Source: Chloroflexota bacterium (GTDB taxonomy: Bacteria > Chloroflexota > Dehalococcoidia > SZUA-161). Taken from it: a DNA stretch of 64,000 nucleotides. Each line of letters begins with the position of its first letter. The first letter of the stretch is position 1. Shown piece by piece: positions 12,708-40,698 of this stretch. Made by a program: the position numbers and the translations under genes. Under the pieces are notes generated by a model. It was not told the DNA's origin. It did not search any database and saw nothing but the letters and a program-made list of their open reading frames with translations. The stretch is from NCBI GenBank assembly GCA_021787935.1, contig JAJYLC010000001.1, positions 4,598-68,597 on the forward strand. Direction: 5' to 3'.

Positions 12708-14360
12708 ATGCTACAGACGAAAAAAGGTGACACACTCGGAACAATACTGGACCGAGTGACCGCAAAGTATCCCAAGAACGAGGCTATGATCCATGGCAGC
12801 GCAAGGATAACCTATGACACGTACATGGATAAGGTGAACTCGATAGCCAACGCCTTGCTGAAGCTGAGCGTGAAGAAGGATGACAAAGTATCCATCTGGA
12901 TGAGCAATAAGCCTGAGTGGGTCTACGCTCATTTCGCGGCAGTGAAAATAGGTGCGCCTGTCATACCGCTAAGCACTCGATACAAGACGCATGAACTCGA
13001 ATATATTCTCAAGAAGTCTGATACTACTACCCTCTTCATGATGGAACGTTTTCTAAAACTGGACTATATTCCTATGATTTACGAGCTATGTCCAGAACTT
13101 AAGACATGCAAGCCCGGAGACCTGCGAAGCGAAAGATTCCCGCTACTTAAGCGGATTATCATATTGAGTGAAAAAAGCTATGACGGAATGCTGGATTATT
13201 ACAAGGTACTGGAGTCTGGAAAGGATTATTTGAACAGCGCTGCATTGAAAAAAGCCCAACAGGCCATCAAGCCCGAGGATGTCTACATAATCCCATTTAC
13301 CTCGGGTACGACTGGTTTCCCCAAAGGAGTGGTTACCACCCATTCCCAGTATATAGGAGTCATAGAAGGCTTCAGTGAAAGATTCCAGATGACTGATAAG
13401 GATCGCATTCTGGTTGTATCCCCATTCAATAATAACATGGGTAATATGACCGGTCTTACGCTGGGAGCACTACACGGGGCCTGCATTCTACCTATGGAAA
13501 GCTTCGATCCAGGAGAGGCTCTGAGGCTGATAGATGAGGAAAAGGCTACGAACTTCACAGGCGCTCCAACGATGTATATTATGATGCTCGATCACCCTGA
13601 CTTCCCCAAGCGAAATACTAAGTCTATAAAAAGTGCCATAATCGGCGGAGCCGATGTTTCTCCCGATTTGGTAAAGACTATTATCGAAAAGATGGGCATA
13701 AAAGACATGATAGCCGGCTATGGCATGACCGAAAACACCGGTATCAGCACCTGTACAAGGCGAGGAGACCCGCCCGAGTTGGTCGCAAATACTGCTGGCA
13801 AGCTCATGTTCAAAGGTTGTGATCTAAGGATTTTCGATCCTGATACTGATAAAGAAGTACCCCGGGGCACCCAGGGTGAGATTCGTACAAAGGGCTGGTT
13901 TGTAATGAAAGAGTATTACAAGATGCCCGAAGAAACTGCAAAAGCCTTTGATAAGAGCGGCTGGTTCCACACCGGCGACCTGGGCGTGATGGATGAAAAG
14001 GGATATATAAAGATCACCGGCCGTTTGAAAGATATGTATATTTCAGGCGGTGTAAACGCATATCCTGCGGAGATAGAGAGCTTCCTTTATACACACCCAA
14101 AGGTGGCAATGGTTGCCGTATTTGGTGTGCCAGATAGGAGGATGGGTGAGGTAGGCGCAGCCTTCATAAAATTGAAGGATGGCCAAACTGCAACAGAGGA
14201 AGAGATTATAGCGTTTTCTAAAGAAAGGTTGGCCAATTACAAAGTCCCCAAGTATATAAAATTTGTAAAAGATTTTCCCATGACCCTTACAGGAAAGGTT
14301 CAGAAGTTTGTGCTAAAAGAACAAATCGTGAAGGAATTGGCGCTGGATAAGCAGCAATAA
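12708..14360 (+). CDS. AMP-dependent acyl-CoA synthetase/ligase
   Basis: 550 aa; AMP-binding motifs (PFTSGTTGFPKGV; YGMTE; GWFHTGDLG…ITGRLKD). Confidence 0.85.
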   Translation: MLQTKKGDTLGTILDRVTAKYPKNEAMIHGSARITYDTYMDKVNSIANALLKLSVKKDDKVSIWMSNKPEWVYAHFAAVKIGAPVIPLSTRYKTHELEYILKKSDTTTLFMMERFLKLDYIPMIYELCPELKTCKPGDLRSERFPLLKRIIILSEKSYDGMLDYYKVLESGKDYLNSAALKKAQQAIKPEDVYIIPFTSGTTGFPKGVVTTHSQYIGVIEGFSERFQMTDKDRILVVSPFNNNMGNMTGLTLGALHGACILPMESFDPGEALRLIDEEKATNFTGAPTMYIMMLDHPDFPKRNTKSIKSAIIGGADVSPDLVKTIIEKMGIKDMIAGYGMTENTGISTCTRRGDPPELVANTAGKLMFKGCDLRIFDPDTDKEVPRGTQGEIRTKGWFVMKEYYKMPEETAKAFDKSGWFHTGDLGVMDEKGYIKITGRLKDMYISGGVNAYPAEIESFLYTHPKVAMVAVFGVPDRRMGEVGAAFIKLKDGQTATEEEIIAFSKERLANYKVPKYIKFVKDFPMTLTGKVQKFVLKEQIVKELALDKQQ

Positions 14361-14528
14361 CTTCCGATTCTTGCTGAAATATGCTCAGTTCTGCGGCCAT
14401 TCAATGGAGAGCTGGGACTTTTGGAAATTGGCACCGCGGTACATTGTGCGTAGTTTTCAACTGAGTCTTTGTCGCAGGCTTATATCTGGATTTCGCATGA
14501 CTGGATAACAAAAAAGGGAGGGACAAGA

Positions 14529-15653
14529 GTGAATTTCAATCTAACTGAGCAGCAGGAGATGTTCCAGAAGTCAGTCAGGAGATTTGCTGAAGCTGAGTTA
14601 ACGCCGCTGATAGATGTGATGGACAAAGAGAATAGATATCCCTTCGAAATACGGCCGAAATTGGTTGCGATGAACCTCCTGGGGATCCCGTTCGACCCGA
14701 AATATGGCGGAGCCGGTGCGGACTATGCAAGCCTGGCTCTAGCTATGGAAGAGGTAGCGAAGGTATTGGCTCCCATGGCTATATCCATGCAAGTAGGAAA
14801 CGTCACTGCTGACAGATTCAATAAACTTGGCACCGAAGAACAGAAAAGAGAATTCATGATTCCGATCTGTGAAGGGAAGAGAGTCGTCTGCTTTGCATTC
14901 ACGGAGCCGGATACAGGCTCGAATCCCAAAATGATTAAAACAACGGCAAAATCGGCGGGCGATGGCTATGTAGTGAACGGCATTAAAAGATTCATCACGC
15001 ATGGGACGTTTGCTGACGCAGCATTAATCTTTGCTAAAGACGACGACGGAGACATCAGCCTATTCATAGTTGAAACGGATCGGAAGGGATTCTCTACTGA
15101 CAAGAAGATGGACAAATTGGGTCTGAGGGGAACGGAACTCTGCGACCTGATAATGAATGATGTTCATATACCTAAAAAGAATATTTTGGGAGGCAAAGGC
15201 AAGAAATTCGATGCTTTGAAGGATGCAATGACGATAGGCAAATTGTGTTTAAGTGCCCAGTGTGTTGGGCTAATGCAGGCTTCCCTGACAGAAGCCATTA
15301 GATACTCGGTGCATCGAATGCATTTCGACCATCCCATATTCGACCTGCAGGCTATTCACTGGCTACTTGCCGAGATGGCATCCAGACTGGAGGCAGCGCG
15401 CTGGCTCACTTACCGGGCTGCTTTCTTGAAAGACCAGGGTATGGACACCATAAAAGACATGGCAATGACCAAGTTATTTGTCACCTCAACGGCGGTAGAC
15501 GTGGTTAGATGGGGAATGCAAGTTCACGGCGCTTACGGTATTAGCAAAGAATATAAGATCGAGCGACTCTTTAGAGACGCTAAGATGTATGAGCTGCTTG
15601 AGGGCACTTCTGAGATACAACGGGAATTGATAGTTAAGCGTTTACCCAGGTAA
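14529..15653 (+). CDS. acyl-CoA dehydrogenase
   Basis: Track ORF starts at 14469. GGGAGGG RBS at 14514-14520 then GTG at 14529 gives VNFNLTEQQEMF…, the typical ACAD N-terminus. C-terminal …YEGTSEIQR… motif. Confidence 0.8.
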   Translation: MNFNLTEQQEMFQKSVRRFAEAELTPLIDVMDKENRYPFEIRPKLVAMNLLGIPFDPKYGGAGADYASLALAMEEVAKVLAPMAISMQVGNVTADRFNKLGTEEQKREFMIPICEGKRVVCFAFTEPDTGSNPKMIKTTAKSAGDGYVVNGIKRFITHGTFADAALIFAKDDDGDISLFIVETDRKGFSTDKKMDKLGLRGTELCDLIMNDVHIPKKNILGGKGKKFDALKDAMTIGKLCLSAQCVGLMQASLTEAIRYSVHRMHFDHPIFDLQAIHWLLAEMASRLEAARWLTYRAAFLKDQGMDTIKDMAMTKLFVTSTAVDVVRWGMQVHGAYGISKEYKIERLFRDAKMYELLEGTSEIQRELIVKRLPR

Positions 15654-15728
15654 CAAGTCTGTACGAGCAGCTTTGGGTCTACCACGGTAATGACATAGCG
15701 CTAACTGAACCGATGGGCCAGACAAAAC

Positions 15729-16946
15729 CTAGTCCACTTTAATTATGGCAGCATTGGCCTGGCCTAATCCTCCGCATATAGCACCCAAGGCATAGCCACC
15801 GCCTCTCCTCTGGAGCTCGTACATCAGGTTCATTATAATCCTGGCACCACTGGCTGTGTTGGGATGTCCTATAGCGATGGCACTTCCGTTAATATTTGTC
15901 CTGTCTCTTATATTTTGTAATTTCTTTTTGTCATCCCCAGCTATTAGCTTTGTAGAGACCAGAGGGACACAGGCGAAAGCTTCATTTATCTCCATAACAG
16001 ATAAATCATCAATACTCAGTTGGGCTTTCTTAAGCACACGCTGTATGGCATGGCCCGGCGCCTCAGCGATTCGGCTGGCTGAAATAGCAATCGATACTTG
16101 AGCAACCAGAGTTGCCAAAGGTGTAAGCCCGAGGTCTTCAGCCCGTCTCCGTGTCATCAAAAGAATTGCAGCAGCTCCGTCGTTCATCCCGGGAGCATTA
16201 CCGGCAGTGATAGCTCGAGTATTGTATATAGTCTTCAGCTTCGAGAGTCTCTCCAGGCTAGTATCAGACCGATATTGTTCATCAATGTTTAATAATTTAG
16301 ACACTCCACCCGGTTGCTGTATATTGAGCGATATTAACTCATCCTTAAATTTGCCGGCATTCCAGGCATCGCCATAGTTAACATGGCTTCGTAGAGCCCA
16401 TTCGTCCTGCTCACGTCTCTCTATTCCATACTCGGCGGCTACATTATCAGCATCAACAGCTACCGGATTAAAATCATTATAACCCAGCGCCTGCAGGGGG
16501 TCTTCCATCTTTACATCCCCTAGCCGATAGCCGCCGAATCGTAATCCTCTGACAATAAGAGGTTCCTGACTAAAAGAGGTGGCACCACCGGCAATGGCCA
16601 CATCGATTTCTCCCGAGGCAATGGTCATAGCAGCAAGTTTGACGGCATGCATTGCGGAAACACATGCCATGTCAAACGATATAGACGAAGTCTCATGAGG
16701 AAGTCCTGCCTTGATGAGCGACTGTCTGGCAGCAACAGGTGTGAAAGGGTCTTTACACGGCGACGTATCCCCTACCCCCCAGAAAACCCAGTCTACGGCA
16801 TCCGGGTTGATTTTAACTCGATTGAGCACCTCTTTGATCGGGATTGCCCCCAAGTCATAATAATCGAAGTCCTTGAGCATGCCACCGTATCTTCCAAAAG
16901 GTGTCCTGGCAGCACTGACTATAACTACATTATTTTCACCAGGCAC
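15729..16946 (-). CDS. acetyl-CoA C-acyltransferase (thiolase)
   Basis: 405 aa; thiolase N-terminal VIVSAARTPFGRYGG and C-terminal GLGQANAAII-like motifs. Confidence 0.85.
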   Translation of the reverse strand: MPGENNVVIVSAARTPFGRYGGMLKDFDYYDLGAIPIKEVLNRVKINPDAVDWVFWGVGDTSPCKDPFTPVAARQSLIKAGLPHETSSISFDMACVSAMHAVKLAAMTIASGEIDVAIAGGATSFSQEPLIVRGLRFGGYRLGDVKMEDPLQALGYNDFNPVAVDADNVAAEYGIERREQDEWALRSHVNYGDAWNAGKFKDELISLNIQQPGGVSKLLNIDEQYRSDTSLERLSKLKTIYNTRAITAGNAPGMNDGAAAILLMTRRRAEDLGLTPLATLVAQVSIAISASRIAEAPGHAIQRVLKKAQLSIDDLSVMEINEAFACVPLVSTKLIAGDDKKKLQNIRDRTNINGSAIAIGHPNTASGARIIMNLMYELQRRGGGYALGAICGGLGQANAAIIKVD

Positions 16947-17001
16947 TGTCTTACTCCGGTTGTTTAACTTCTTTTGAGAACAACCCTCACTTCAGTGATG
17001 A

Positions 17002-17862
17002 CTACGCAGAATAGCTGTAAAACCCTTTGCCGCTCTTTCTCCCCAGATGACCGGCTCGAACCATTTGTCGCAGCAGCAACGGCGGACGATATTTGGGATC
17101 GCTATACTCTCTGTACAGGTTTTCCATAACGTAAAGAAGTGTGTCCAATCCCACGAAATCCGCTAACTCCAAGGGGCCCATGGGGTGATTCATCCCCAGC
17201 CTCATGCTTTTATCGATATCCTCGGCGCTGGCTATGCCTTCAGCAAATGCATGAATCGCCTCATTCATCAGGACGGCAATAAATCTGCTGGTAGCAAAAC
17301 CCGGCGTGTCAGAAACGACTATCGGCGTTTTCCCCATCTTAACTGATAACTCTTCTATGGATTTAATGGTTTCCTCGCTAGTGCTGTATCCTCGAACTAT
17401 CTCCACTAGCTGCATCATAGGTACTGGGTTCATGAAATGCATGCCTATAAACCGGTCTGCTCTCTTGGTGGCGGATGCCATCTCAGTGATGCTCAGGCCC
17501 GAGGTGTTAGAGGCGAAAATAACGTGAGATGGACTCTCGTTGTCTATGGCTTTGAAGGTTTCTTTTTTGAGGGACAATATCTCTGGGATTGCCTCTATTA
17601 CGACATCAACATCTCTAACAGCTTCAATCAGCTTGTTTGTACATTTGATCCTTGACAGGGCAGTATCTGTGTCGGCTTGGGTAATCTTTCCCTTTTTAAC
17701 CATGCGCCCCAGGCTCTGCTTAACAGCAGCCATGCCTTTCTCAAGAAACTTATCCTCGATATCTCTCAACTTCACCTCGAGACCGGCTTGGGCTGCAACC
17801 TGGGCGATACCTGCACCCATAAGCCCTGCGCCCAACACACATACCTTACGTATTGCTGCCAT
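17002..17862 (-). CDS. 3-hydroxyacyl-CoA (3-hydroxybutyryl-CoA) dehydrogenase
   Basis: 286 aa; N-terminal VCVLGAGLMGAGIAQV Rossmann motif; HBD family. Confidence 0.85.
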   Translation of the reverse strand: MAAIRKVCVLGAGLMGAGIAQVAAQAGLEVKLRDIEDKFLEKGMAAVKQSLGRMVKKGKITQADTDTALSRIKCTNKLIEAVRDVDVVIEAIPEILSLKKETFKAIDNESPSHVIFASNTSGLSITEMASATKRADRFIGMHFMNPVPMMQLVEIVRGYSTSEETIKSIEELSVKMGKTPIVVSDTPGFATSRFIAVLMNEAIHAFAEGIASAEDIDKSMRLGMNHPMGPLELADFVGLDTLLYVMENLYREYSDPKYRPPLLLRQMVRAGHLGRKSGKGFYSYSA

Positions 17863-18013: not shown

Positions 18014-18090
18014 AGGGGTGTAGCTCAGTCAGGTAGAGCGGCGGTCTCCAAAACCGTTGGTCGTGGGTTCGAATCCTGCCACCCCTGCCA
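18014..18090 (+). tRNA. tRNA-Trp (anticodon CCA)
   Basis: Cloverleaf folded by hand. Acceptor AGGGGTG/CACCCCT, D-loop with GG, anticodon loop CTCCAAA, T-loop TTCGAAT, discriminator G plus encoded CCA. Nearly identical in layout to E. coli tRNA-Trp. Confidence 0.85.
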
Positions 18091-18093
18091 TTT

Positions 18094-18181
18094 GCCGAGG
18101 TGGTGGAACCTGGTAGACACGCCATCTTGAGGGGGTGGTGAGCGAAAGCTCGTAGGAGTTCAAATCTCCTCCTCGGCACCA
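18094..18181 (+). tRNA. tRNA-Leu (anticodon GAG), long variable arm
   Basis: Acceptor GCCGAGG/CCTCGGC; anticodon stem CCATC/GGTGG with loop TTGAGGG; long variable arm TGAGCGAAAGCTCGT; T-loop TTCAAAT; ACCA end. Confidence 0.8.
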
Positions 18182-18205
18182 TGCTATAATAGTAACGTGA
18201 AGCGA

Positions 18206-18280
18206 GCGGAAGTAGTTCAGCGGTAGAATGCCTCCTTGCCAAGGAGGAGGTCGCGAGTTCGAATCTCGTCTTCCGCTCCA
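18206..18280 (+). tRNA. tRNA-Gly (anticodon GCC)
   Basis: Acceptor GCGGAAG/CTTCCGC; anticodon stem CCTCC/GGAGG with loop TTGCCAA; T-loop TTCGAAT; encoded CCA. Confidence 0.85.
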
Positions 18281-18282
18281 AT

Positions 18283-18354
18283 GGCGACGTAGCCAAGTGG
18301 TAAGGCGGGGGTCTGCAAAACCCCTATTCAGCGGTTCGAATCCGCTCGTCGCCT
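18283..18354 (+). tRNA. tRNA-Cys (anticodon GCA)
   Basis: Acceptor GGCGACG/CGTCGCC; 3-bp D-stem typical of tRNA-Cys; anticodon stem GGGGT/ACCCC with loop CTGCAAA; T-arm AGCGG-TTCGAAT-CCGCT; no encoded CCA. Confidence 0.85.
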
Positions 18355-18356
18355 CT
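18313..18356 (+). repeat. 44-bp direct repeat copy 1 (3' half of tRNA-Cys from the anticodon loop to 2 nt past the gene; putative attL)
   Basis: ctgcaaaacccctattcagcggttcgaatccgctcgtcgcctct is identical to 22750-22793. Confidence 0.8.
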
Positions 18357-18730
18357 CACATAAGGCCCATCTTACCCAGTATCCCTTTGACATGTGTGAA
18401 GATAGACACATCTTCTTTCATATCCCACCAGATAAACTTGTCAAGCTCGTGTCCTATGAGGCGTGGTTGACCTCGTGCTTCGACCAAGCAGACTTTATGA
18501 AGGCTGGCATAACCTTTGAAGTCGCAATCTCGCAACCGCGTTATTTTGGTTGGACTCAATCCCAGTTCCTCAAACAACTCCCTGCCAGCGGCACTTGCAG
18601 CAGGTTCATTCTCTTTTATTCCCCCGCCGGGCAACGAGAAGCGACGCCTACCTCTGTCTCGAACAAGCAGAACCTTGCTATCTCTTATTACGACTGCAGT
18701 ACCCCGTTGGCGTAGGTGGCGATTATTCAT
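18356..18730 (-). CDS. NUDIX hydrolase
   Basis: 124 aa; Nudix box GGGIKENEPAASAAGRELFEELGL (GX5EX7REUXEEXGU pattern). Confidence 0.7.
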   Translation of the reverse strand: MNNRHLRQRGTAVVIRDSKVLLVRDRGRRRFSLPGGGIKENEPAASAAGRELFEELGLSPTKITRLRDCDFKGYASLHKVCLVEARGQPRLIGHELDKFIWWDMKEDVSIFTHVKGILGKMGLM

Positions 18731-18801
18731 ATGGGCACCTTGCGTTTGTTGCGGTATCCTACAGCAATATGTACCAACATTTGAGTTTATCCATAGAGGT
18801 T

Positions 18802-20073
18802 TTAGTTATTCCAGTTTCCGTCCCAAGTCGTATAAACATTGGTGACTGTTCCTAAGCTGTCCCATGTGCTGTCCCACCCCACTTCTGGGAATAAACTGTG
18901 GGGGATATACTGTTGCCCCACTTGGACATTGACTGTTTTTACACATCTTGTGGGGCCTGGTGAGTTAGTATCATCCACATAGACCAAACCCATATCGGTT
19001 GTTTGGAATGCGTCAAGGGCATGTCCACCAGTGTACCCAGACAAGTCGATTGAGACATAGGCACATCTGATTCCCGCCATCTCGGCGTCATTGTGAAGCC
19101 TTTCGGCAAAATCAGCACACACTTGAGGAGGGCTAGGCTGCTCTGTGCCATCAATAATACCTTGAATACGAGTCAGGTCAACATAGCTCTCAGCGGAACC
19201 GTAATATGACCCTGGTACCGACAGGCTGTAAGTGTATGGAAACTGGTCCGTTCTATCTTGTTGCAGGAAGCTCACCATCTGAGCATAGGTCGGATTGACA
19301 GCGTCCTTATTATTGATGAGCACGATGAAATGGCCGCTGTCATCGTAGCAACCATTACCAGAAAGCGTTCCTTCTGGTGTGTCTACCAGTCCTAGGTAGT
19401 AATTCTTGTATATGCCTGTTCGGCTGTTTATGCCTGCGCGTGTCTGACTTGGCGCTGGCGCAGTGGCTCTGGTTCCAGTCGAACTCGGGATGGGATTTGC
19501 CGACGACGATTGTTCTCCTTGGGAATTTCCGCCCTTATGGAACCATTCTACGACTGCATTCTTGGCTTCGTATAATGGACTCACCTTGGCGTAAGCTGCG
19601 ACTGAACATCCTATCAGGGCTACAAGGATCAGGGAGACGAATATGGTACCGTATCTTCTGACTTTATACTTTCGCACATCGCTAAACGTAATGATATCCC
19701 ATAGAGCAACAATCCCAGCTGCTGTCATAATTCCTATGACGACTGGTCGTGCAAGCTCAGGAATGTGATAGTACGTATATGCAATAATTCCTATAGCCGA
19801 AGCTGTTAGCAAGAGCAATATTAAAGATTGACTCCAACGGGACTGTCTCCGAGAGCGTAACTTACCCAGTGCAGAATTGATAGGCTTACTACGATGCTGA
19901 TGTACATGACCCGCTCCATAACTGGGTGTGGGAAAACTGTATTCACACCGGCCACACCGCCAAGAGCGATAGTGCCTATTATAGTAGACCTTAGTGCTTC
20001 CGCATCGTGGACATAATGGTGCGCCCCTTGATTCCTTCTGGGCTGCCCAATATTCGTCTTCTCTCTTAGGCAT
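18802..20073 (-). CDS. zinc-ribbon / 3-TM / transglutaminase-like cysteine-protease-domain membrane protein
   Basis: 423 aa. N-terminal CPRCG…CGRC ribbon and three hydrophobic helices. C-terminal VCADFA…AGIR…GHALDAF…VDDT matches the transglutaminase-like core (C…H…D with the GxCxxFA-like motif). Paralogous to CDS 20096-21643. Confidence 0.6.
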   Translation of the reverse strand: MPKREDEYWAAQKESRGAPLCPRCGSTKVYYNRHYRSWRCGRCEYSFPTPSYGAGHVHQHRSKPINSALGKLRSRRQSRWSQSLILLLLTASAIGIIAYTYYHIPELARPVVIGIMTAAGIVALWDIITFSDVRKYKVRRYGTIFVSLILVALIGCSVAAYAKVSPLYEAKNAVVEWFHKGGNSQGEQSSSANPIPSSTGTRATAPAPSQTRAGINSRTGIYKNYYLGLVDTPEGTLSGNGCYDDSGHFIVLINNKDAVNPTYAQMVSFLQQDRTDQFPYTYSLSVPGSYYGSAESYVDLTRIQGIIDGTEQPSPPQVCADFAERLHNDAEMAGIRCAYVSIDLSGYTGGHALDAFQTTDMGLVYVDDTNSPGPTRCVKTVNVQVGQQYIPHSLFPEVGWDSTWDSLGTVTNVYTTWDGNWNN

Positions 20074-20095
20074 AGGGTAACCACTTATTATTGTA

Positions 20096-21643
20096 TTACC
20101 AGTATATCTCCACAGTACTAACGATACCCAACGGCAAAACGGTCCAGTCTGTGGGCAAAATGAATTGAGGCGTATATTCTGTGCCTGGCTTCACTGACAC
20201 GGTTGTGTCGTTGTTTGAAGGTCCTGCCTGTCCTGGTGGTATTCCAGTGCAATCTATATATTTCAATCCTTCGTCTGTTGTAACGAAGGCATCCAGAGCA
20301 TGACCAATGGTCTGCCCTTGGAAAGTGACAAAGACGAATGCTGTCCTGATTCCCGCTGCCTCCGCATGGTCGTAGACATCCCTGGCGAAGTCAGCGCATG
20401 TGTACGTTGGCATGATGTATGGGTTGCTGTCTGTCTTATCCGCAAGTATGAAGCTTTCAAGTTGTGCCCAAGTTGGGTTCTGCGCCGCGGAATTCCTCGT
20501 CAGGGTTACAGATACGCCCGCCGCGTCAGTGACTGCGGGTTGTATCCCGGAGTATACCGTGATTCCCGTATCCTGATAGAGTTTGAGTTGTGTTTGAAGC
20601 TGATTGACTGTATTCTGCAAGGAAGTTATTTGGCTGTTTAGGCCGCTAATCTCTGATTTGGTGTTGTTCAAATCGGCTGTGGTTGTGCTCAGCTTGCCTT
20701 GTACTGTGACTAGCTCATTCTCCTTTGCCTGCACCTTGCTGTGGGAACTTTCAGAAACCCAAAACACGCTGACTAAGACCAGTAGAATTATAATGAAAGG
20801 GAATGCAATAGTTGCATAGCGAATTCTGAGATTACCGAATTTCAACAAGCCAATCATAGCAGCAGCGCTCCAGATTGCGGCGATTGAGGCGACTAAGATT
20901 AACCCAATAGCGGCATATCCAAGCCCGCTAAACTGAAAAGTTGCATAACCTATGAGTGCCAGGCACGCGAAGATTAGAATCAAGTAACGCGCATTTCTAC
21001 GAACAGCACTTACGTTCCTAAGTCTACCTGGGGCAACCATCATATTGCATAAAGAATTGAGGCATTCATAGCCAGATGTATTAGGGTTCCAATAGAGTGT
21101 ACCTTGCCCACAACCCGGACATATCTTCATTATTTGCCTTACAAAATGCCTCGGCTGTTCAAGTTGCACTTCAGGCGGCCGCTGTTGTTGTACTGCTATC
21201 TCACCCACTTCACTCTTTTGAAAATTACGTTTACACGCCGGATTGAAACACTCATGTAGTTTGACGAAGTGGTTCCAGTACAGCGACTTTTCACTGCAGG
21301 CAGGACACTGCCGCATCTCTGGCTCGTTGCGCTGGCTACCTAATTGCCTTTCGCGCAAAGCCATTTGTTCGCACCGGCAAGTGTCACACTCATATTTATA
21401 ATACTTGTGGTGCTTATAGCAGTATTTCACGCTATCACCAAAGGCACTGGCATATTCTTCTCGTGGTGCTCGCCCTTCCTCGGTTCTGTTCTCTTTCCAT
21501 ATGGGGCTCTGTTTGCACTTCGGATTTGTGCATTCTTTGGCCCTAGTGAATGGATTCCAGAAGAGGGACATTTCCCCACAGGCAGGGCACCGTTGAAACG
21601 CTGGGGTGTCCATCTGGCTATGCGAAGATTCGTCCTCTTTCAT
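20096..21643 (-). CDS. multi-zinc-ribbon / TM / coiled-coil / transglutaminase-like domain membrane protein
   Basis: 515 aa. Three CPxCG…C ribbons with the repeated module CPACSEKSLYWNHFVKLHECFNPACKRNF. Two hydrophobic stretches (~45 and ~21 aa) that could each hold one or two TM helices; the ~45-aa one is long enough for two. Q/N/L-rich coiled coil. C-terminal TCADFARD…AGIRTAFV…GHALDAFVTTDEGLKYIDCT (C-x31-H-x16-D). Confidence 0.6.
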   Translation of the reverse strand: MKEDESSHSQMDTPAFQRCPACGEMSLFWNPFTRAKECTNPKCKQSPIWKENRTEEGRAPREEYASAFGDSVKYCYKHHKYYKYECDTCRCEQMALRERQLGSQRNEPEMRQCPACSEKSLYWNHFVKLHECFNPACKRNFQKSEVGEIAVQQQRPPEVQLEQPRHFVRQIMKICPGCGQGTLYWNPNTSGYECLNSLCNMMVAPGRLRNVSAVRRNARYLILIFACLALIGYATFQFSGLGYAAIGLILVASIAAIWSAAAMIGLLKFGNLRIRYATIAFPFIIILLVLVSVFWVSESSHSKVQAKENELVTVQGKLSTTTADLNNTKSEISGLNSQITSLQNTVNQLQTQLKLYQDTGITVYSGIQPAVTDAAGVSVTLTRNSAAQNPTWAQLESFILADKTDSNPYIMPTYTCADFARDVYDHAEAAGIRTAFVFVTFQGQTIGHALDAFVTTDEGLKYIDCTGIPPGQAGPSNNDTTVSVKPGTEYTPQFILPTDWTVLPLGIVSTVEIYW

Positions 21644-21714
21644 CAGCGTTACCTCCTCTAGCGGCTGCTTTTCTAACGGAAATTACTCGGCTAGCCTGCT
21701 GATAATAAATTCAC

Positions 21715-22446
21715 CTACTTGGGTAAGTTGCCTACTTGCTTTGAGTCATTGTCAGGCGGAAGCTGTTGCCCTATTCTTGCAGCTAATTCGCTTCTCGTAA
21801 AATTGAGTCTGCACCTTGGGTTAAAGCATTCATATACTTTTGTAAAATGATTCCATTGTAGCGATGGTTTTTCACAAACGGGGCATTGTCGCAGATCCCT
21901 GGCTTTCTGCACCTTATCCGCAGACTCTTGACGCAGAGTCTGTTGTTCCAGGCGGCATTTATCACACTCAGTGTTGTAGTATGTCTTATGCTTGTAGCAG
22001 TACATGGGTGTCTCTACCTGGGCAGCCCTTGGTCGCTCCTCTGACCTTTGAGGTCGGCTAGTAGATAAGTTTGTGAAGTTGGTAGCTATGAAAGTTGGTG
22101 AAGTCGATTTCGCCATGAGCTTGCGGCTGAGGTATCGGTTGGGAGAAACATACCTTACACGGTACTTGCCAAGCGGAATAATGGGTATGAATATCAGGCA
22201 GAAGTACTTGGTCTGTACGATAGAGGAACATACGGGGCAGCGTAACCCTCCACCGTATAACCTTGTTCCGATTCCGTTGAGGGTTGTGGTTGAGCCTGCG
22301 CTCTCAGCAGTGGTAGCATCTGCACATTTTTGGCAGAATCCGGGAAAATGCCGGAAGTTTTGACATTCCTTGGAACAATAGACACCGAGTTCATCCCGGG
22401 GGCCCCAGACAACGCGAGATCCGCAATTGCTACATTTTTCAAACAT
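21715..22446 (-). CDS. multi-zinc-ribbon protein (paralog of the N-terminal regions of 20096-21643; no TM or TGase-like domain)
   Basis: 243 aa. Modules YCYKHKTYYNTECDKCRLEQQ and CPVCEKPSLQWNHFTKVYECFNPRCRLNF are near-identical in pattern to YCYKHHKYYKYECDTCRCEQ / CPACSEKSLYWNHFVKLHECFNPACKRNF in the neighbouring protein. Confidence 0.5.
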   Translation of the reverse strand: MFEKCSNCGSRVVWGPRDELGVYCSKECQNFRHFPGFCQKCADATTAESAGSTTTLNGIGTRLYGGGLRCPVCSSIVQTKYFCLIFIPIIPLGKYRVRYVSPNRYLSRKLMAKSTSPTFIATNFTNLSTSRPQRSEERPRAAQVETPMYCYKHKTYYNTECDKCRLEQQTLRQESADKVQKARDLRQCPVCEKPSLQWNHFTKVYECFNPRCRLNFTRSELAARIGQQLPPDNDSKQVGNLPK

Positions 22447-22749
22447 GCTCAGACCTCCCTCAAGGATGCATCACTTGAGACATTCTACAGCGACATGGCA
22501 TAGAGTGCAAGATGACTCGCTATGACTTACTGTATCTGCTTATCACCCATCTTCTTGCACCCTGACTTCGTCAAGCGCCTGGCTGCCCCATACAAGCTCA
22601 GGCCAACGGAGATGCTGGGTAGGAACCTCTGAGGCCTGGTTACAGCTAACGGACAGCTAACCGTTTCAGCGGTTGCAAGCGGTGTTTTGCGGTTGTCAGA
22701 GGTGTGTTTTAGCTTCGGGTATGCCTGCAGGCGAGTGTGAAACGCGTTA

Positions 22750-22793
22750 CTGCAAAACCCCTATTCAGCGGTTCGAATCCGCTCGTCGCCTCT
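22750..22793 (+). repeat. 44-bp direct repeat copy 2 (partial tRNA-Cys 3' half; putative attR)
   Basis: Identical to 18313-18356. Not preceded by the 5' half of a tRNA, so it is not a complete gene. Confidence 0.8.
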
Positions 22794-22830
22794 TCTTTTT
22801 ACAGCCAGATTAAAAGCCTTCGCAAGAACC

Positions 22831-24318
22831 TTATCTTGATATGCCCAGGTATCCGCTGTACCGGACTACGTGGGAGAGCGCCCTAGCCGCCCTCTCGGGA
22901 GTGGGGTACGGGATAAGATGGTTCTGTTCCATCAAGCTGTACACTTCTCCCTGCTTCACAATCCCGATGCCCATAGAACAGAAGATTACAGGCTTATCAT
23001 ACCTGCCCATCATTTCTTTCACTCTGTTCAATTCCACCAGGTCTTTACTCTCCATCAGCTTTCCCATTTCGTCCAGATTAGTGACCCAGGGAGCATGCAG
23101 TGAAAACCACCCGACGAAGCTGCGTGTTGCCGCAGGAGAACCTATTACCAGCACGACATCTACGTTCTCGTCCTCTATCAGCGGCCAGAGACAGTCATAG
23201 TTGAAACGGTCGCCGCCAATGTCGACAGGGTTCCCGTGTGACCAACGACGTGACAGGACTGAGTTCAGCTTATCAATTGTTGCAGGCGACAGCGGAGGCA
23301 GTTCCAGACCATGCCTTGCTACTGTATCCGCGGTCATAACAGCCATACCTCCACCTATCGAGAGCACCCCCACCCGCTTTCCTTTGGGCAGCGGCTGTCC
23401 CAATAGAAGCAGCGCAACGTCAATCAGCTCGCCAATTTCTTCCACCCTGATGACCCCGGCCTGCTTGAACGCCGCATCGCTGACTATGTCCGAACCTGCC
23501 AGAGCAGCAGTATGAGACCGCGCTGCTTTAGCGCCAGCCTGCGTTCCACCTGCCTTCACTACAACAATAGGTTTCTTTTTGGTAATCTCCCTTGCCAGCT
23601 CTAAAAAGCGGCGGCCTTCCCTGAGACCCTCGATGTAGCCGAGAATGACCTTGATTTCGTCATCCTGTGCCAGATACTCGAGGTAGTCCTCAAAATGCAG
23701 AGCAGCCTCGTTCCCGCTGCTGACGTATTTGCTGAATCCCAGGCCGCTTTCCAGGCCCGAGATAATAATCGATTGACCGGAGTTCCCGCTCTGAGATATG
23801 AGCCCCACCGGCCCTCTCCTCAACGGCGGCAGAAAAATGACGGTATTGAAGTTAGAGTAAGTATCGAAAAGCCCCATGCAGTTTGGCCCTACGAACGGTA
23901 TGCCCCCGCGCTTCGCGACCTCGACTATCTGCGCCTGGACCTTCGCACCTTCTTCGCCTGTCTCGGCAAGCCCTCCTGAGATAACCACCACCCCTTTTAC
24001 CTGCTTCCGGATGCAGTCCTCCATAGCTGACGGGACATCCTTAAATGGCACCGTAATGACCGCTAAATCTACAGGACCAGGCACGTCCAATATGCTCGGA
24101 TAAGCCTTCAACCCGAGCACTTCAGCCTCTCTATTATTCACAGCGTATATGTCTCTGCTTTTGTCGCCTAACAGCAGGGCAAGAATATTAAAGCCCCACT
24201 TGCCCAGCGTATTGGACGCACCGATCAAGGCTACTGAACGCGGATTGAACATGCTGTCCAACTGCTCTTTAAATGTCATTTCTCCGTATCCTGAATATAA
24301 TTTTTCCTGAACGTTCAT
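22831..24318 (-). CDS. NDP-forming acyl-CoA synthetase alpha subunit-like (CoA-binding + CoA-ligase domains)
   Basis: 495 aa; FNPRSVALIGAS…GPNCMGL…GPVGLISQSGN… succinyl-CoA-synthetase-alpha-like motifs. Confidence 0.75.
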   Translation of the reverse strand: MNVQEKLYSGYGEMTFKEQLDSMFNPRSVALIGASNTLGKWGFNILALLLGDKSRDIYAVNNREAEVLGLKAYPSILDVPGPVDLAVITVPFKDVPSAMEDCIRKQVKGVVVISGGLAETGEEGAKVQAQIVEVAKRGGIPFVGPNCMGLFDTYSNFNTVIFLPPLRRGPVGLISQSGNSGQSIIISGLESGLGFSKYVSSGNEAALHFEDYLEYLAQDDEIKVILGYIEGLREGRRFLELAREITKKKPIVVVKAGGTQAGAKAARSHTAALAGSDIVSDAAFKQAGVIRVEEIGELIDVALLLLGQPLPKGKRVGVLSIGGGMAVMTADTVARHGLELPPLSPATIDKLNSVLSRRWSHGNPVDIGGDRFNYDCLWPLIEDENVDVVLVIGSPAATRSFVGWFSLHAPWVTNLDEMGKLMESKDLVELNRVKEMMGRYDKPVIFCSMGIGIVKQGEVYSLMEQNHLIPYPTPERAARALSHVVRYSGYLGISR

Positions 24319-24366
24319 ACTTTTGCCCCTTCATCCGGGAGATTTCGTCTCTTAATACCTAATTAT

Positions 24367-25218
24367 CTACCTTGCAATGTTGGGATACAAGCGTGCTGAT
24401 ATTATAACCAAAATCACTGTCGCGAAAATCAAGACGCCGAAATCAAGTCCTAACCCGTACTCGCTCACCCCGTGAGACAACATCAACGTCCGTAGCGCAT
24501 CTACCTGATAGGTTAGCGGGTTTATATGTGCGATTACCTGCAGCCAGCGAGGCATCACAGAGATAGGATAGATTGCGCTGCTGGCGAAGAAGAGCGGCAT
24601 CGTCAGGACCTGGCCAATACCCATAAAACGTTCGCGCGTCTTAACCAGAAACGCTACAATCATGGAAAGCGAGGAGAAAGCAGTGGCTCCGATAAGAACG
24701 GCAGCCAGTACCCCTAATAGGGCCAGCGGGTTCCAGTTAATATCTACCCGGAGGATTACCGCCAGGATAAATATAAGTACAGCCTGAGGCAAGCCGCGCA
24801 CACCCCCTGAGAGCGCTTTGCCCAGTGCCAGTGCGCCGCGTGAGGTGGGGCTGACCAGAAACTTATGGACTATGCCTAAATCCCGCTCCCAGATAAGAGC
24901 TATGCCGCTGAAAATTGCGATGAACAGCGTGCTCTGGGCCAGAACGCCCGGGGTCAGAAAGTCTATATAGCGCAGGTTCCCCGTTGGTATGGCCCTGATG
25001 TGAGTAAAAACCTCGCCGAATACCAGAAGCCAGATAACCGGCTGCACGGCGCGCATGATAAGCTCGGTCGGGTCGTGGCGTATTTTGCGCACCTCAAATT
25101 CGGACATGGCCAAAGTCTTGTCAACGAACCCGCGAATAACTGATAAAGGATTCCTAGGCCTGGGCAGAGCGGCCTCAGCCGAGCCGCTTGGCCGTGCGCC
25201 TTGTCCTGGAGACGTCAC
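24367..25218 (-). CDS. ABC-2 family transporter permease
   Basis: 283 aa, six predicted TM segments. Overlaps the upstream ATPase gene. Confidence 0.7.
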   Translation of the reverse strand: MTSPGQGARPSGSAEAALPRPRNPLSVIRGFVDKTLAMSEFEVRKIRHDPTELIMRAVQPVIWLLVFGEVFTHIRAIPTGNLRYIDFLTPGVLAQSTLFIAIFSGIALIWERDLGIVHKFLVSPTSRGALALGKALSGGVRGLPQAVLIFILAVILRVDINWNPLALLGVLAAVLIGATAFSSLSMIVAFLVKTRERFMGIGQVLTMPLFFASSAIYPISVMPRWLQVIAHINPLTYQVDALRTLMLSHGVSEYGLGLDFGVLIFATVILVIISARLYPNIAR

Positions 25219-25978
25219 GATAGTTTCCTCCCGATTCTAGTTCGCTTCCTGTATAATGGATAAACACGTCCTCTAGGGTTGCACCATCTCGCCCTATAGA
25301 TGCCTTAAGATCATCCGGCTTACCTATTACAGCCACCTTGCCCCGGTGCATAATCGCCACCCGGCCGCACATGCTGTCGGCTTCCTCCATCAGGTGTGTA
25401 GTCATCAATATAGTTGTCCCGTACTCGTTACGTAATCGCTCGATATGTTCCCAGACTGCTTTCCGCGCCAATGGGTCAAGACCCACTGTTGGCTCATCCA
25501 GAAACAGCACCTGAGGGCGATGCAATATGGACTGAGCGATCTCTAGGCGCCGCACCATACCGCCGGAGTACGTGCGCACGAGTCTGTTTGCGTCTTCCTC
25601 CAAACCCATAAACTTAAGCGCATTGTGTATCCGCGTCTTCCTCTCGCTCCGCGGTATATCGTAGAGCCTGGCAAAGATAAGCAGATTTTCGTAGCCCGTA
25701 AGCGTGCCCTCAGTTGACAGCATCTGCGGTACGTAACCTATCAAACGACGAACATCTCCGGCACGACGGAGAATGCTGTATCCTGCCACGCTGGCATCTC
25801 CAGAAGTAGGCGGCAGCAGGGTGATTAGCATCTTAATTGCTGTGGTCTTGCCGGCGCCATTTGGGCCCAGCAACCCGAAAGTCTCTCCCGCCTCCACCGA
25901 AATGGTCATCGTGTTTACAGCGATGAGCTCTCCAAAAGAGCGAGTGAGCGCATTGGTTTCTATAATTGCAGCAGTCAT
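25175..25978 (-). CDS. ABC transporter ATP-binding protein
   Basis: Walker A GPNGAGKTT, signature LSGGMVRR, Walker B LFLDEPTVGLD. Confidence 0.85.
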   Translation of the reverse strand: MTAAIIETNALTRSFGELIAVNTMTISVEAGETFGLLGPNGAGKTTAIKMLITLLPPTSGDASVAGYSILRRAGDVRRLIGYVPQMLSTEGTLTGYENLLIFARLYDIPRSERKTRIHNALKFMGLEEDANRLVRTYSGGMVRRLEIAQSILHRPQVLFLDEPTVGLDPLARKAVWEHIERLRNEYGTTILMTTHLMEEADSMCGRVAIMHRGKVAVIGKPDDLKASIGRDGATLEDVFIHYTGSELESGGNYRDVSRTRRTAKRLG

Positions 25979-26475
25979 TGAACTGACATGCCTCCTTTGC
26001 TTGCAGGCAACCCCTCCGGCGCGAAGACCTGGCCTAACATTTTCAATGCTTCCGCAACTCTGCCTTGTTGCTCAGGCGGGAGCAGCCCCAATGACTCAGC
26101 CAGTCGTGTCTCGGTCATTTTGCGCGTTCGCTTGAGCTCGGCAAGACCATGCGCACTCAGCCTCAAGCTAACGTACCGTCGGTCATCGGCAACTGCCCTG
26201 CGTATGACCAGTTTCCTCGCAACCAAAGCATCAACAGTCTTGGACATAGACGGCAGCTTCAAGCCAATGTGTTCTGCCACCTCCGACAGCGAGGCCCCTT
26301 CATTTCGATAGATATACACTAGCGTTCGCAATTGTGGCACCGTAAGACCCGGTGCACGATGGCTCCGCATCTCCATGCGGATGCGGCGCATCACCCTGGG
26401 GACTACTTCCATCAAAAGGGAAGCGCCTTCGAGGTCAGGAGTTAAAGAAATAGTTTCCTCTTGCAACTGTTTCAT
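25975..26475 (-). CDS. MarR family transcriptional regulator
   Basis: 166 aa with a winged-helix MarR-like core (…LTVPQLRTLVYIYRNEGASLSEVAEHIGLKLPSMSKTVDALV…). First gene of the ABC operon; 4-bp overlap with the ATPase gene. Confidence 0.75.
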   Translation of the reverse strand: MKQLQEETISLTPDLEGASLLMEVVPRVMRRIRMEMRSHRAPGLTVPQLRTLVYIYRNEGASLSEVAEHIGLKLPSMSKTVDALVARKLVIRRAVADDRRYVSLRLSAHGLAELKRTRKMTETRLAESLGLLPPEQQGRVAEALKMLGQVFAPEGLPASKGGMSVQ

Positions 26476-26599
26476 AAATAAAGTATAGACCTCTCAGCAG
26501 GAAAAGTCAATAGATTTGAACAAAAAAGGCTTAAAAATTTGTAACATTCTAGAGGGTGACCAGCCTGTAGATAGTTCCTAAGGCAGTTCATTCAGACCG

Positions 26600-27139
26600 T
26601 CAGGTGCTGAGCCTGAAAGGTGGATAGCGGTCTGTAGCTAGCAGGAAAGCGTAAGCCATGACTCTCAAGTCCCATCTTAACACACCTTCCACGAAATTGA
26701 ACATACTTTTCGGATAGCGTCCTGTAAACAGGATAGAGAACCAGGCGATCACCACCATTGCCAGAGCAACGATGCCCAGGGAAAAGAGCGCAACATAATG
26801 TGGAATAGCCAGCAGCCATTTAATCAGAGGCAGCCAGCGATGCAGCTCCTCCTCAGCCTTTGGATAAGGGATTTCGATATGATACAACCGCTCGTCGTCT
26901 GTTGAGGGATATTCGTCCCTCAATAGCGCGAGGTAGGCCCAGACACGGGTACTGAACTTGGTTAGAGCCAGATACCAGTCGAACCACCACTTGGGGTACT
27001 TTTGCAGAAACAGCAACATCAACACCGTAGGGATGAAAACAAACCCGCCTGCGAGAACCATGCCGCCGCTTATAAAAATGAAGACTATGAAAATAGGAAT
27101 TGCTATTAGCAGCCTGAAAAAGGTAGTTATCCGGTTCAT
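26600..27139 (-). CDS. DUF4389-like integral membrane protein
   Basis: Track ORF extends to 27337, where it would abut the divergent gene. The internal Met (MNRITTFF…) at 27139 is preferred. Several TM helices and a C-terminal …GRYPKSMFNFV…DRYPPF motif. Confidence 0.45.
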   Translation of the reverse strand: MNRITTFFRLLIAIPIFIVFIFISGGMVLAGGFVFIPTVLMLLFLQKYPKWWFDWYLALTKFSTRVWAYLALLRDEYPSTDDERLYHIEIPYPKAEEELHRWLPLIKWLLAIPHYVALFSLGIVALAMVVIAWFSILFTGRYPKSMFNFVEGVLRWDLRVMAYAFLLATDRYPPFRLST

Positions 27140-27300
27140 GTTCTTATCAGGGTAATCAACAGACAAGTCAATCGGGTATGCCTTTACTGCCTCTGTCACA
27201 CTAAGACCTCCAGATAAGACTCTCGCTGTTCCTGCGCGGAGCGCAAATCTTCCGCAATTGTAACACAGAAAGCGCATTTCTAGTATGATCTGCCCCCCCA

Positions 27301-27329
27301 TTGACATCGGCTCTCTCTGATTGTATCTT
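27301..27329 (+). promoter_or_regulatory. sigma70-like promoter giving a near-leaderless transcript for CDS 27338-27718
   Basis: TTGACA (27301-27306), 17-bp spacer, TATCTT (27324-27329). The ATG at 27338 lies only ~8 nt downstream of the -10 element. Confidence 0.35.
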
Positions 27330-27337
27330 GATAGCAA

Positions 27338-27718
27338 ATGGCACAGAATATTAAATGCCCCCGCTGCGGCAGATATACAGCCGATGCAACTTACTGTCAG
27401 TATTGCGGCAAGGCTTTACATGCTTGTCCAGTCTGTGGCGCCAGGATATCCCGAAACGCCATATTCTGTCCTGAGTGCGGAGCACCTATCTCTAAGGACC
27501 AAAGAGATATAGTAGCCACAGAGCGCACCTCATGGGCCTGGTGGATACTTCCCCTGCTATTAGGCTGGATAGGCGGCGTCATTGCCTGGGCTATGAACCG
27601 ATACAGAGATCCCGCTAAAGCTAGCTATATGCTCTGGTTTGGGGTATCGTTGACCGTGATAGAGATCATCATCACCATAGTGGTAGACGTGACACAACAT
27701 GGTCACACCGCACCTTAA
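27338..27718 (+). CDS. double zinc-ribbon domain membrane protein
   Basis: 126 aa; CPRCG…CQYCG and CPVCG…CPECG ribbons followed by two TM helices. Confidence 0.6.
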   Translation: MAQNIKCPRCGRYTADATYCQYCGKALHACPVCGARISRNAIFCPECGAPISKDQRDIVATERTSWAWWILPLLLGWIGGVIAWAMNRYRDPAKASYMLWFGVSLTVIEIIITIVVDVTQHGHTAP

Positions 27719-27752
27719 CCCTTGTCCATGAACCAACGCCAGCATCTAAAAT

Positions 27753-27839
27753 GCCGAGGTGGCGGAACCGGCAGACGCGACGGACTTAAAATCCGTTGGG
27801 CTTCGGCCCTTGCGGGTTCAAATCCCGCCCTCGGCACCA
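27753..27839 (+). tRNA. tRNA-Leu (anticodon TAA), long variable arm
   Basis: Acceptor GCCGAGG/CCTCGGC; anticodon stem ACGGA/TCCGT with loop CTTAAAA; variable arm GGGCTTCGGCCCTTGC; T-loop TTCAAAT; ACCA end. Confidence 0.8.
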
Positions 27840-39871: not shown

Positions 39872-40173
39872 GACCCGCCTCCTGCCACCGACCTAAGCTT
39901 ACCAAATGGTATCCGTGTAGTTTTAGCTTCAAAAATTTGGTAAATAGGTCGAGACAATGAATTACACAATTTTACACAAACCCCAGACGGTAGTCAATTT
40001 GAGAGAAGTTCAATCCAAAAGATAGCAACTAGGAGTAAGTAGTAAAGGACAATATGAAGCACTACATGAGAGAAGAGCAGTTGAACTATTTTCCAGTTTT
40101 ACCGAAATTCCCCGCAGGATTAGTTAAATAAGTTAACTGCCCACTGTTCAAACGGCATTAAAACTTCTTATTT

Positions 40174-40698
40174 TCATTGATATGGCAAAGTTGTTTTGGT
40201 AATTCGCCGATTATGAACGTTTACTCCGGTATCATTTTTAGCGTGTTTGCTCTTTCTGTATATTCTACTAAGAAAGTCCGGCTTCGCACACTGGATTCCC
40301 ATTTTGCTTGCTGATTCTATTAAATCTGTTTTTGGTCTTTTCTCCAACTTTGACATGGTCTCTGCCATCAGGAATACAAATTCGCCTCCGTGCCAGCATC
40401 GTGATAATCCATAATACATAAATAAAATTGCATGTATTGACTCATGGCAACATATCCACAGATTATTCTGTCCTTTGTTGATCGATATCTTATTTGCTCC
40501 AAAATCGAACCCAGGATATAGGTATCCATTATTTGAGAAAGCTATTTCCGGTGTTAAATCTTCCGGCATTTTATAGAGTTCACATATTTTCTTTATTGTC
40601 CTTTCACATTCAGCTTCGGTAAGGACTTTAGATTTTAGGAAATTTTTTCTCTCCCATCTGTAAACTTTAGACCTTTGAAAATCCCTTAACTCTCTCAT
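40174..40698 (-). CDS. hypothetical protein with HExxH zinc-metallopeptidase-like motif (AT-rich islet)
   Basis: 174 aa; CCHESIHAILF contains HExxH. Local GC is clearly lower than the flanks. Confidence 0.4.
   Translation of the reverse strand: MRELRDFQRSKVYRWERKNFLKSKVLTEAECERTIKKICELYKMPEDLTPEIAFSNNGYLYPGFDFGANKISINKGQNNLWICCHESIHAILFMYYGLSRCWHGGEFVFLMAETMSKLEKRPKTDLIESASKMGIQCAKPDFLSRIYRKSKHAKNDTGVNVHNRRITKTTLPYQ

Follow-up and report, generated by a model that had tools for sequence, protein, structure and literature searches.

Paralogous membrane proteins with predicted cytoplasmic zinc ribbons and an outward-facing papain/transglutaminase-like domain on a tRNA-Cys islet of Dehalococcoidia

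The window analysed here is a stretch of 64,000 nucleotides (nt) from a Chloroflexota bacterium of the Dehalococcoidia (assembly GCA_021787935.1, contig JAJYLC010000001.1, positions 4,598 to 68,597 of the forward strand). It contains a cluster of four genes, two of which encode membrane proteins that combine N-terminal zinc ribbons with a C-terminal Cys-His-Asp domain, and these two proteins are the subject of this work. The cluster occupies positions 18356-22446 of the minus strand as four close-set open reading frames (ORFs) with intergenic gaps of 71, 22 and 71 nt. The first gene, C243 (21715..22446), codes for a zinc-module protein of 243 residues; it is followed by the genes for the two membrane proteins, B515 (20096..21643; 515 residues) and A423 (18802..20073; 423 residues), and the last gene, directly after A423, encodes a NUDIX protein of 124 residues (18356..18730) that has a complete Nudix box. 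The spacing suggests that the four genes may be co-transcribed. An earlier note, made from the letters of this DNA, had singled out the two membrane proteins as paralogs lying next to a NUDIX enzyme, and it was correct on each count: both ORFs are present on the minus strand at the coordinates it gave (18802-21643), A423 and B515 align by BLASTP over nearly their full length (25% identity, E=4e-30), and the neighbour belongs to the NUDIX family (Pfam PF00293, E=4.9e-13).

The two proteins share a layout of one or more N-terminal zinc ribbons, three transmembrane (TM) helices and a C-terminal domain of approximately 160-195 residues, with an identity of about 43% between the two copies of that domain. 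A423, which starts with the residues MPKREDEYW, has a linker between its TM block and the C-terminal domain. It also has an insertion of approximately 32 residues ahead of the conserved Cys and a tail with the motif TWDGxW; these marks identify a subtype to which the relatives P0020, P0097, P0187 and P0234 also belong. A423 and B515 are of different subtypes and are not the products of a recent duplication.

The Cys-His-Asp domain spans residues 229-423 of A423 (18805..19389, minus strand), as positioned by alignment to a hidden Markov model (HMM) of the family, which the protein matches with E=1.2e-59, and residues 360-515 of B515 (20099..20566, minus strand). With codons checked, the candidate triad of A423 is C319 (19117-19119), H351 (19021-19023) and D367 (18973-18975), and that of B515 is C416 (20396-20398), H448 (20300-20302) and D464 (20252-20254); in both proteins the His follows the Cys by 32 positions and the Asp follows the His by 16. 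The motifs quoted for the two domains in the earlier note are present. The transglutaminase-like Cys-His-Asp core that it had proposed is supported by residue conservation, by the positions of the residues in the modelled secondary structure and by fold matches. An AlphaFold model of the domain, generated from a 33-sequence alignment, has a predicted local distance difference test score (pLDDT) of 94.3 and a predicted template modelling score (pTM) of 0.89. In this model helix 60-73 begins with the candidate Cys, the His opens strand 92-99 and the Asp closes strand 103-108. The predicted structure therefore has the features of the Peptidase_CA clan fold, namely an α+β core with the Cys at a helix N-terminus and a sheet that carries the His and the Asp. 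When the model was compared with known structures using Foldseek, the ten best matches were to MOA and PSL1a (E about 4e-3, probability 1.0), followed by LapG and TG3, and a viral structure library returned a Caulobacter phage transglutaminase and a Pyrobaculum virus 'Agglutinin C-terminal domain' protein. The assignment of the modelled domain to the papain/transglutaminase-like fold is well supported.

Pfam and structural comparison of this domain had been suggested in the earlier note, and the likeness that it expected is found in structure and lies below threshold in Pfam. The C-terminal domains of A423 and B515 had no match above threshold in Pfam, NCBIfam, PADLOC or PHROGs, searches of PDB sequences with the single proteins and with the profile gave chance matches only, and neither protein matched Transglut_core (PF01841) at E<=1. 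Among 33 family members scanned against Pfam, sub-threshold matches were seen to DUF4796_C (0.006), Gln_amidase (0.049), DUF553 (0.14) and Transglut_core (0.16; 1/33 members), and all of the suggestive matches are to papain or transglutaminase families. The PF18021 model ('Agglutinin C-terminal') was not among the Pfam matches of these 33 members at E<=10. In comparison with the transglutaminase-like superfamily (PF01841; protein-glutaminase, factor XIII/TG2/TG3, PNGase, TglA and PeiW/PeiP), the family described here matches only below threshold and has invariant motifs of its own, one upstream of the Cys (D-x-T-D...Y) and one following it (HNNAExAGI). A protease of the MOA/PSL1a type depends for its activity on a binuclear Ca/Mn site and has an active site to which both halves of a dimer contribute; in the present family the invariant D-x-T-D is a candidate metal site.

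Conservation of the triad was scored in 205 unique homologous domains, where the Cys is present in 201/205, the His in 200/205 and the Asp in 204/205. These values bear on whether the domain might be a pseudo-enzyme, with a structural or adhesive function instead of catalysis and with a structural or redox role for the conserved Cys. In line with such a role, the list of fold matches includes the non-enzymes protein 4.2, XPC/Rad4 and axonemal proteins, and degenerate copies of the domain occur in relatives with tandem domains (P0021-P0025). However, the triad residues are 98-99% conserved together with the motifs that surround them. Moreover, the degenerate copies are extra copies paired with an intact one: in both examples that were read, the first copy lacks the His (in P0021 the Cys as well) and the second copy is intact. 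Decay confined to extra copies is what one would expect if the residues are catalytic, and we give very little credence to a non-catalytic module.

The nearest structures to the family domain, the protease domains of MOA and PSL1a, share only 14-18% sequence identity with it. For the MOA domain, experiments have proven that it acts as a Ca/Mn-dependent cysteine protease by means of a Cys215/His257 dyad (PMC4764322, PMC8244254), and PF18021, the Pfam family that contains it, was reassigned to the papain-like group (PMC10318531). Both MOA and PSL1a are toxic chimerolectins (PMC4764322, PMC5256987). By analogy with MOA, which kills nematodes via its protease domain, A423 and B515 might be toxins or antagonism effectors that are displayed on the surface or released, with the membrane anchor serving for presentation only. 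Besides the structural likeness, this idea draws on one relative of 483 residues, P0130, that also bears a ricin-B lectin domain, on the several divergent paralogs of the family that single genomes hold and on the variability of the locus described below. MOA, however, is a soluble lectin-protease dimer of eukaryotic origin, whereas the A423/B515 family consists of prokaryotic membrane proteins. The ricin-B lectin domain of MOA is absent from A423 and B515, and that of P0130 precedes the TM helices, which places it on the cytoplasmic side, opposite to the protease-like domain. No small gene resembling an immunity gene is regularly found beside the family genes, and the Pfam scans revealed neither secretion-system nor polymorphic-toxin features. 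We consider a toxin role to be quite improbable.

The topology of the two proteins was assessed from hydropathy and from lysine/arginine counts. The three-TM block comprises residues 83-164 in A423 (19582..19827, minus strand) and residues 218-298 in B515 (20750..20992, minus strand). Counting the 15 residues before TM1, A423 has five positive residues ahead of TM1, none in loop 1 and five in loop 2, and the corresponding numbers for B515 are four, none and three. According to the positive-inside rule, this bias indicates a cytoplasmic N-terminus and a C-terminal domain on the outside. Among 127 relatives, the domain without exception forms the C-terminal part, and in nearly all of them one or three TM helices precede it; the minimal form is a signal-anchor plus the domain, as in a 185-residue protein of Methanosarcina. 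The charge bias and the position after TM helices in relatives both support the extracytoplasmic location of the domain that had been proposed from the sequence.

A stretch of B515 rich in Q, N and L had been read as a coiled coil. The stretch is present, as a Q/N/S/T/L-rich segment of residues 299-359 (20567..20749, minus strand), and it is modelled as a helical stalk continuous with TM3. The full-length model of B515 (mean pLDDT 75) contains helices at residues 212-241 and 243-266, an unbroken helix at residues 274-359 and a globular domain at residues 362-515. If this model is correct, the stalk would continue for approximately 60 residues past the membrane, a length of about 9 nm. Residues 283-354 also gave weak matches to Pfam coiled-coil models and to the PHROG 'Rz-like spanin', which we rejected as reflecting the composition of a TM segment plus helical stalk and not homology.

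On the cytoplasmic side, the zinc region of B515 (21047..21589, minus strand) was delineated from motif scans, translations, the structural model and alignment. It holds three C4 ribbons, CPACGEMSLFWNPFTRAKECTNPKC (ribbon 1; residues 19-43, 21515-21589), CPACSEKSLYWNHFVKLHECFNPAC (ribbon 2; residues 113-137, 21233-21307) and CPGCGQGTLYWNPNTSGYECLNSLC (ribbon 3; residues 175-199, 21047-21121), which have the pattern CPxC-x3-(S/T)L-x-WN-x7-EC-x-N-x2-C in common. A C-x2-H-x7-C-x2-C knuckle at residues 75-89 (21377-21421) is a further site, additional to those listed in the earlier note. The B515 model places β-hairpins at residues 27-38, 73-82, 121-132 (within ribbon 2; pLDDT 92-95) and 182-194, and the motifs, the model and the invariant Cys columns agree on the arrangement of a zinc ribbon, with two CxxC-type knuckles and a β-hairpin between them. 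A423 has a single ribbon, CPRCGSTKVYYNRHYRSWRCGRC (residues 21-43, with C21, C24, C40 and C43; 19945..20013, minus strand), whose Pfam matches, to Zn_ribbon_IS1595 (22.5 bits against a cut-off of 25.4) and to the S27ae ribbon, are below threshold. The description of both proteins as carrying multiple zinc ribbons thus holds for B515 but not for A423.

The recurrence of a longer module, CPxCxEKSLxWNHFxKxxECFNPxCxxNF, is likewise real, but the near-exact pair is formed by B515 and C243, the latter lying beyond the coordinates that had been claimed. The C-terminal half of C243 (residues 132-238; 21733-22053, minus strand) is a stand-alone copy of the knuckle-plus-ribbon module of B515, with 48% identity to B515 residues 74-163 over 90 residues (BLASTP, E=2e-27). 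The N-terminal half of C243 contains additional CxxC pairs and one weak hydrophobic segment (FCLIFIPIIPLGKYRV). Many relatives have an N-terminal module of approximately 90 residues made up of the MPKREDEYW start, a C-x2-H-x7-9-C-x2-C knuckle and a C4 ribbon, and all eight metal ligands are invariant in its alignment. B515 and C243 hold the full knuckle-plus-ribbon unit, and A423 retains the start and one ribbon. The module is also found on its own in small proteins, of which two bear Dehalococcoidia names, and it is covered by no curated model.

Two further bacterial systems invite comparison. LapG is a soluble bacterial transglutaminase-like cysteine protease that is controlled by LapD, an inner-membrane receptor for cyclic di-GMP. 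The receptor is a separate protein in that system, whereas A423 and B515 carry the anchor and the cytoplasmic module on one polypeptide, and no GGDEF/EAL partner was seen. TgpA of Pseudomonas aeruginosa is an inner-membrane protein with a periplasmic transglutaminase domain; it differs from A423 and B515 in TM architecture and flanking domains, has no Pfam match in common with them and lacks cytoplasmic zinc ribbons.

The size of the family depends on how it is searched for. A full-length query retrieved 20 relatives only, a profile of the domain retrieved 1828 proteins from a 90%-identity database, and an exhaustive scan of 50%-identity representatives gave 3020, 2168 and 906 clusters at E<=1e-3, 1e-10 and 1e-30, respectively. 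Among contigs sampled at one genome per species, 319 stretches encode the domain, and the best 80 of these 319 were used for locus taxonomy and for neighbourhood counts. According to their record labels, 63 of the 80 are from Dehalococcoidia, 9 from other Chloroflexota, 7 from Methanosarcina or Methanolobus and 1 from Bathyarchaeia. The sole named match of the domain profile is 'hypothetical protein Dform_01350' of Dehalogenimonas formicexedens. Phage and plasmid collections contained no homolog, and an exact-sequence search with B515 returned no recorded contig. The earlier statement that this is not a described family is borne out: Pfam, NCBIfam and PDB sequences yield no match for the two proteins' domain, and what the 33 members match in Pfam is sub-threshold throughout. 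We conclude that the superfamily is a known one but that the family of A423 and B515 is new and sizeable, as are new its architecture and its zinc module.

Partner domains were sought by Pfam scans of ten long members and 128 representatives, and were taken to be cytoplasmic when they lie N-terminal to the predicted TM helices. Ig-type domains (fn3, PKD and Ig-like) recur in the family, and in P0225 and P0246 they sit between the TM anchor and the domain. On the cytoplasmic side we found zf-AN1 (5), Zn_Ribbon_1 (4), DnaJ (3), 2H phosphoesterase (2), NUDIX (2), ATP-cone (2) and ricin-B (1), and one of the two 2H/LigT-bearing relatives also has Metallophos_2. Most relatives have a short N-terminus and TM segments, with no zinc module or other cytoplasmic domain.

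Neighbourhood profiling, which had been suggested as a check, was run over the 80 genomes and showed no conserved context: no neighbour is conserved family-wide. Two family genes within 6 kb of each other were found at 0 of 80 other loci, which makes the tandem of A423 and B515 unusual. Two groups of related genomes do show local synteny. In 10-11 loci of Dehalococcoidales (L005-L084, e.g. L043, L058 and L022) a NurA-like gene lies upstream of the family gene, and a gene for a protein of approximately 200 residues followed by a HerA-like ATPase gene lies downstream; the NurA-like and HerA-like labels are our own reading of the sequences. In a second subgroup of five Dehalococcoidia loci the family gene stands beside an ortholog of the ADP-forming acyl-CoA synthetase that also flanks the gene cluster in the window. 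We considered both arrangements as possible functional linkages and rejected them, reading them as shared ancestry of related genomes.

The four genes lie on a small tRNA-associated islet. The tRNA-Cys(GCA) gene (18283..18355, plus strand), identified with ARAGORN and Rfam, is the last of a Trp-Leu-Gly-Cys cluster (18014-18355) and is the target site of the islet. A 44-nt att-like direct repeat with 100% identity covers the 3' half of this tRNA gene on the left (18313..18356, plus strand) and forms a partial tRNA-Cys on the right (22750..22793, plus strand), where the islet ends. The islet thus comprises positions 18357-22793, a 4.4-kb segment with the four genes and about 300 nt of non-coding DNA. 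The "tRNA-anchored islet" of the earlier note is therefore real, with a perfect repeat of the tRNA 3' half at both borders, and its "accessory" flavour is supported by a related genome without the islet. This genome is represented by a metagenome contig, L155, that was found via the repeat: its left end is the tRNA cluster (95% identity), its right part corresponds to 22827-27285 of the window (84% identity), and in place of the islet it has approximately 945 unrelated nt and a single repeat copy. Since the same flanks occur without the islet, the 4.4-kb segment is a strain-variable insertion at tRNA-Cys.

In having flanking direct repeats of a tRNA 3' half and a site that is islet-free in a related genome, the segment resembles tRNA-integrated genomic islands. 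It differs from them in its length of only 4.4 kb, in lacking both an integrase and an excisionase and in a base composition that does not deviate. No integrase was found in the four islet proteins, where Pfam recognised NUDIX only, or in ten other ORFs of the window that were scanned; the GC content of the islet does not deviate, and an Rfam scan found tRNAs only. A relative, P0005, adjoins a tRNA-Lys gene, and no repeat was found there. The islet is flanked at 12708-17862 and 22831-24318 by genes of fatty-acid and acyl-CoA metabolism, which we read as acyl-CoA synthetase, dehydrogenase, thiolase and 3-hydroxyacyl-CoA dehydrogenase genes, together with the gene for the ADP-forming acyl-CoA synthetase, which alone is backed by Pfam.

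The NUDIX gene of the islet has counterparts elsewhere in the family. At locus L088, the gene of P0014, a distant multi-ribbon relative that shares 29% identity with B515, directly precedes a NUDIX gene with 77% identity to that of the window, and at L023 a family gene also has a NUDIX neighbour. In P0187 and P0234, both of the A423 subtype, a NUDIX domain is fused at the N-terminus. Fusion and adjacency together argue for a functional link between the membrane proteins and NUDIX enzymes, in a small part of the family only. At L088 (3326-5143 of contig ERZ27247924 k141_5624837) the genes after P0014 are, in order, NUDIX, TIR and 2H/LigT phosphoesterase genes, and in a sister contig, L087, a 63-residue ORF is called at the place of the NUDIX gene.

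These observations raise the question of whether the family is a transmembrane signalling or conflict device. The outer papain-like domain would then act as a sensor or trigger that, for example, binds or cleaves a surface protein of a phage or competitor or undergoes self-cleavage, the signal would pass via the TM helices to nucleotide-processing partners (NUDIX, 2H phosphoesterase, metallophosphatase or the TIR neighbour), and the cassette would serve defence or anti-defence. The TIR protein of L088 matches Thoeris and Avs-type TIR models in PADLOC, and the varied cytoplasmic domains of relatives (NUDIX, 2H/LigT, Metallophos_2, ATP-cone, DnaJ and zf-AN1) and the strain-variable position of the cassette on a tRNA islet point the same way, as does the neighbour of P0002, which by its sequence looks nuclease-NTPase-like. 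However, searches of PADLOC-DB 2.0 gave no significant match for A423, B515 or C243, and the NUDIX protein of the window matched only PDC-S07, weakly (E=1.1e-5). The lack of homologs in the phage and plasmid collections, the scarcity of cytoplasmic effectors among family members, the unconserved and mostly housekeeping neighbourhoods of the 80 genomes and the islet's lack of an integrase and of GC deviation also speak against such a device. The idea of defence draws only on the setting of P0014 in L088 and on the fusions with nucleotide enzymes, and we regard a signalling or conflict role as unlikely; the sensor-protease and defence readings of the earlier note are unproven. A more specific form appears distinctly unlikely to us. 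In it, the family would supply the outer part of a transmembrane system for conflict or signalling that is confined to Dehalococcoidia and Methanosarcinales. A surface event, for instance the cleavage or capture of an envelope protein of foreign or own origin, would be relayed to cytoplasmic nucleotide-processing enzymes (NUDIX, 2H phosphoesterase, metallophosphatase and TIR neighbours) that lineage-specific zinc-ribbon adaptors recruit. Were this true, the 4.4-kb islet at tRNA-Cys would carry such a system as a mobile cassette.

We favour the simpler explanation that A423 and B515 are outward-facing, membrane-tethered thiol peptidases or transglutaminases that act on envelope proteins, which we think is probably correct. 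With an N-in/C-out arrangement, each protein would present a thiol enzyme at the outer surface of the cytoplasmic membrane, and that of B515 would be raised on its helical stalk of approximately 9 nm. In the predicted triad, the nucleophilic Cys would sit where a helix begins and the His and the Asp on an adjacent β-hairpin, and the most likely chemistry would be the cleavage or transamidation of peptide or isopeptide bonds in cell-surface proteins. Dehalococcoides and Methanosarcina have surface layers (S-layers) and no murein, and the Methanosarcinales are generally held to lack murein. Two draft genomes of Dehalococcoidia are without the peptidoglycan pathway (PMC3971608). The S-layer or other envelope proteins of Dehalococcoidia and Methanosarcinales would be natural targets. 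The cytoplasmic zinc modules would be optional, lineage-specific adaptors that tether soluble partners, of which the NUDIX hydrolase of the same gene cluster is the best supported, and the four genes would together form an accessory cassette inserted at tRNA-Cys.

Several points weigh against this explanation. None of the curated papain or transglutaminase models is matched above threshold by the 33 scanned members, and peptidase, transglutaminase and deamidase chemistry are indistinguishable from sequence. An S-layer substrate is suggested solely by which organisms carry the family. Since most relatives are without a zinc module, the ribbons appear to be dispensable for the core function. Scans of the islet for promoters and terminators gave no excess over shuffled controls, and it is only the spacing of the four genes that speaks for an operon.

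The Dehalococcoidia are organisms of relevance to bioremediation whose envelopes are poorly understood and for which very few surface enzymes are annotated. A family of approximately 3000 clusters outside Pfam, NCBIfam and PADLOC gains a confidently predicted fold, a candidate active site, a consistent outward topology and a nearest characterised enzyme (MOA/PSL1a). The fusions to and adjacency of NUDIX and other nucleotide enzymes, together with the new 90-residue zinc module, point to an undescribed coupling between cytoplasm and surface, and the integrase-less 4.4-kb islet is a clean case of a strain-variable cassette in Dehalococcoidia.

Elsewhere in the window, two kilobases have a low GC content in comparison with a value of about 0.50. 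One is at 53001-54000 (0.40), which contains an ORF of 230 residues (53267-53959) with no Pfam match, and the other is at 40001-41000 (0.37), which contains a SprT-like ORF of 174 residues (40174-40698). Finally, a gene for a DUF4389 membrane protein (26600-27337, minus strand) and one for a double-zinc-ribbon protein (27338-27718, plus strand) adjoin tRNA-Leu(TAA) (27753-27839), and positions 26600-27839 thus hold a second pairing of a zinc-ribbon protein and a membrane protein beside a tRNA gene.

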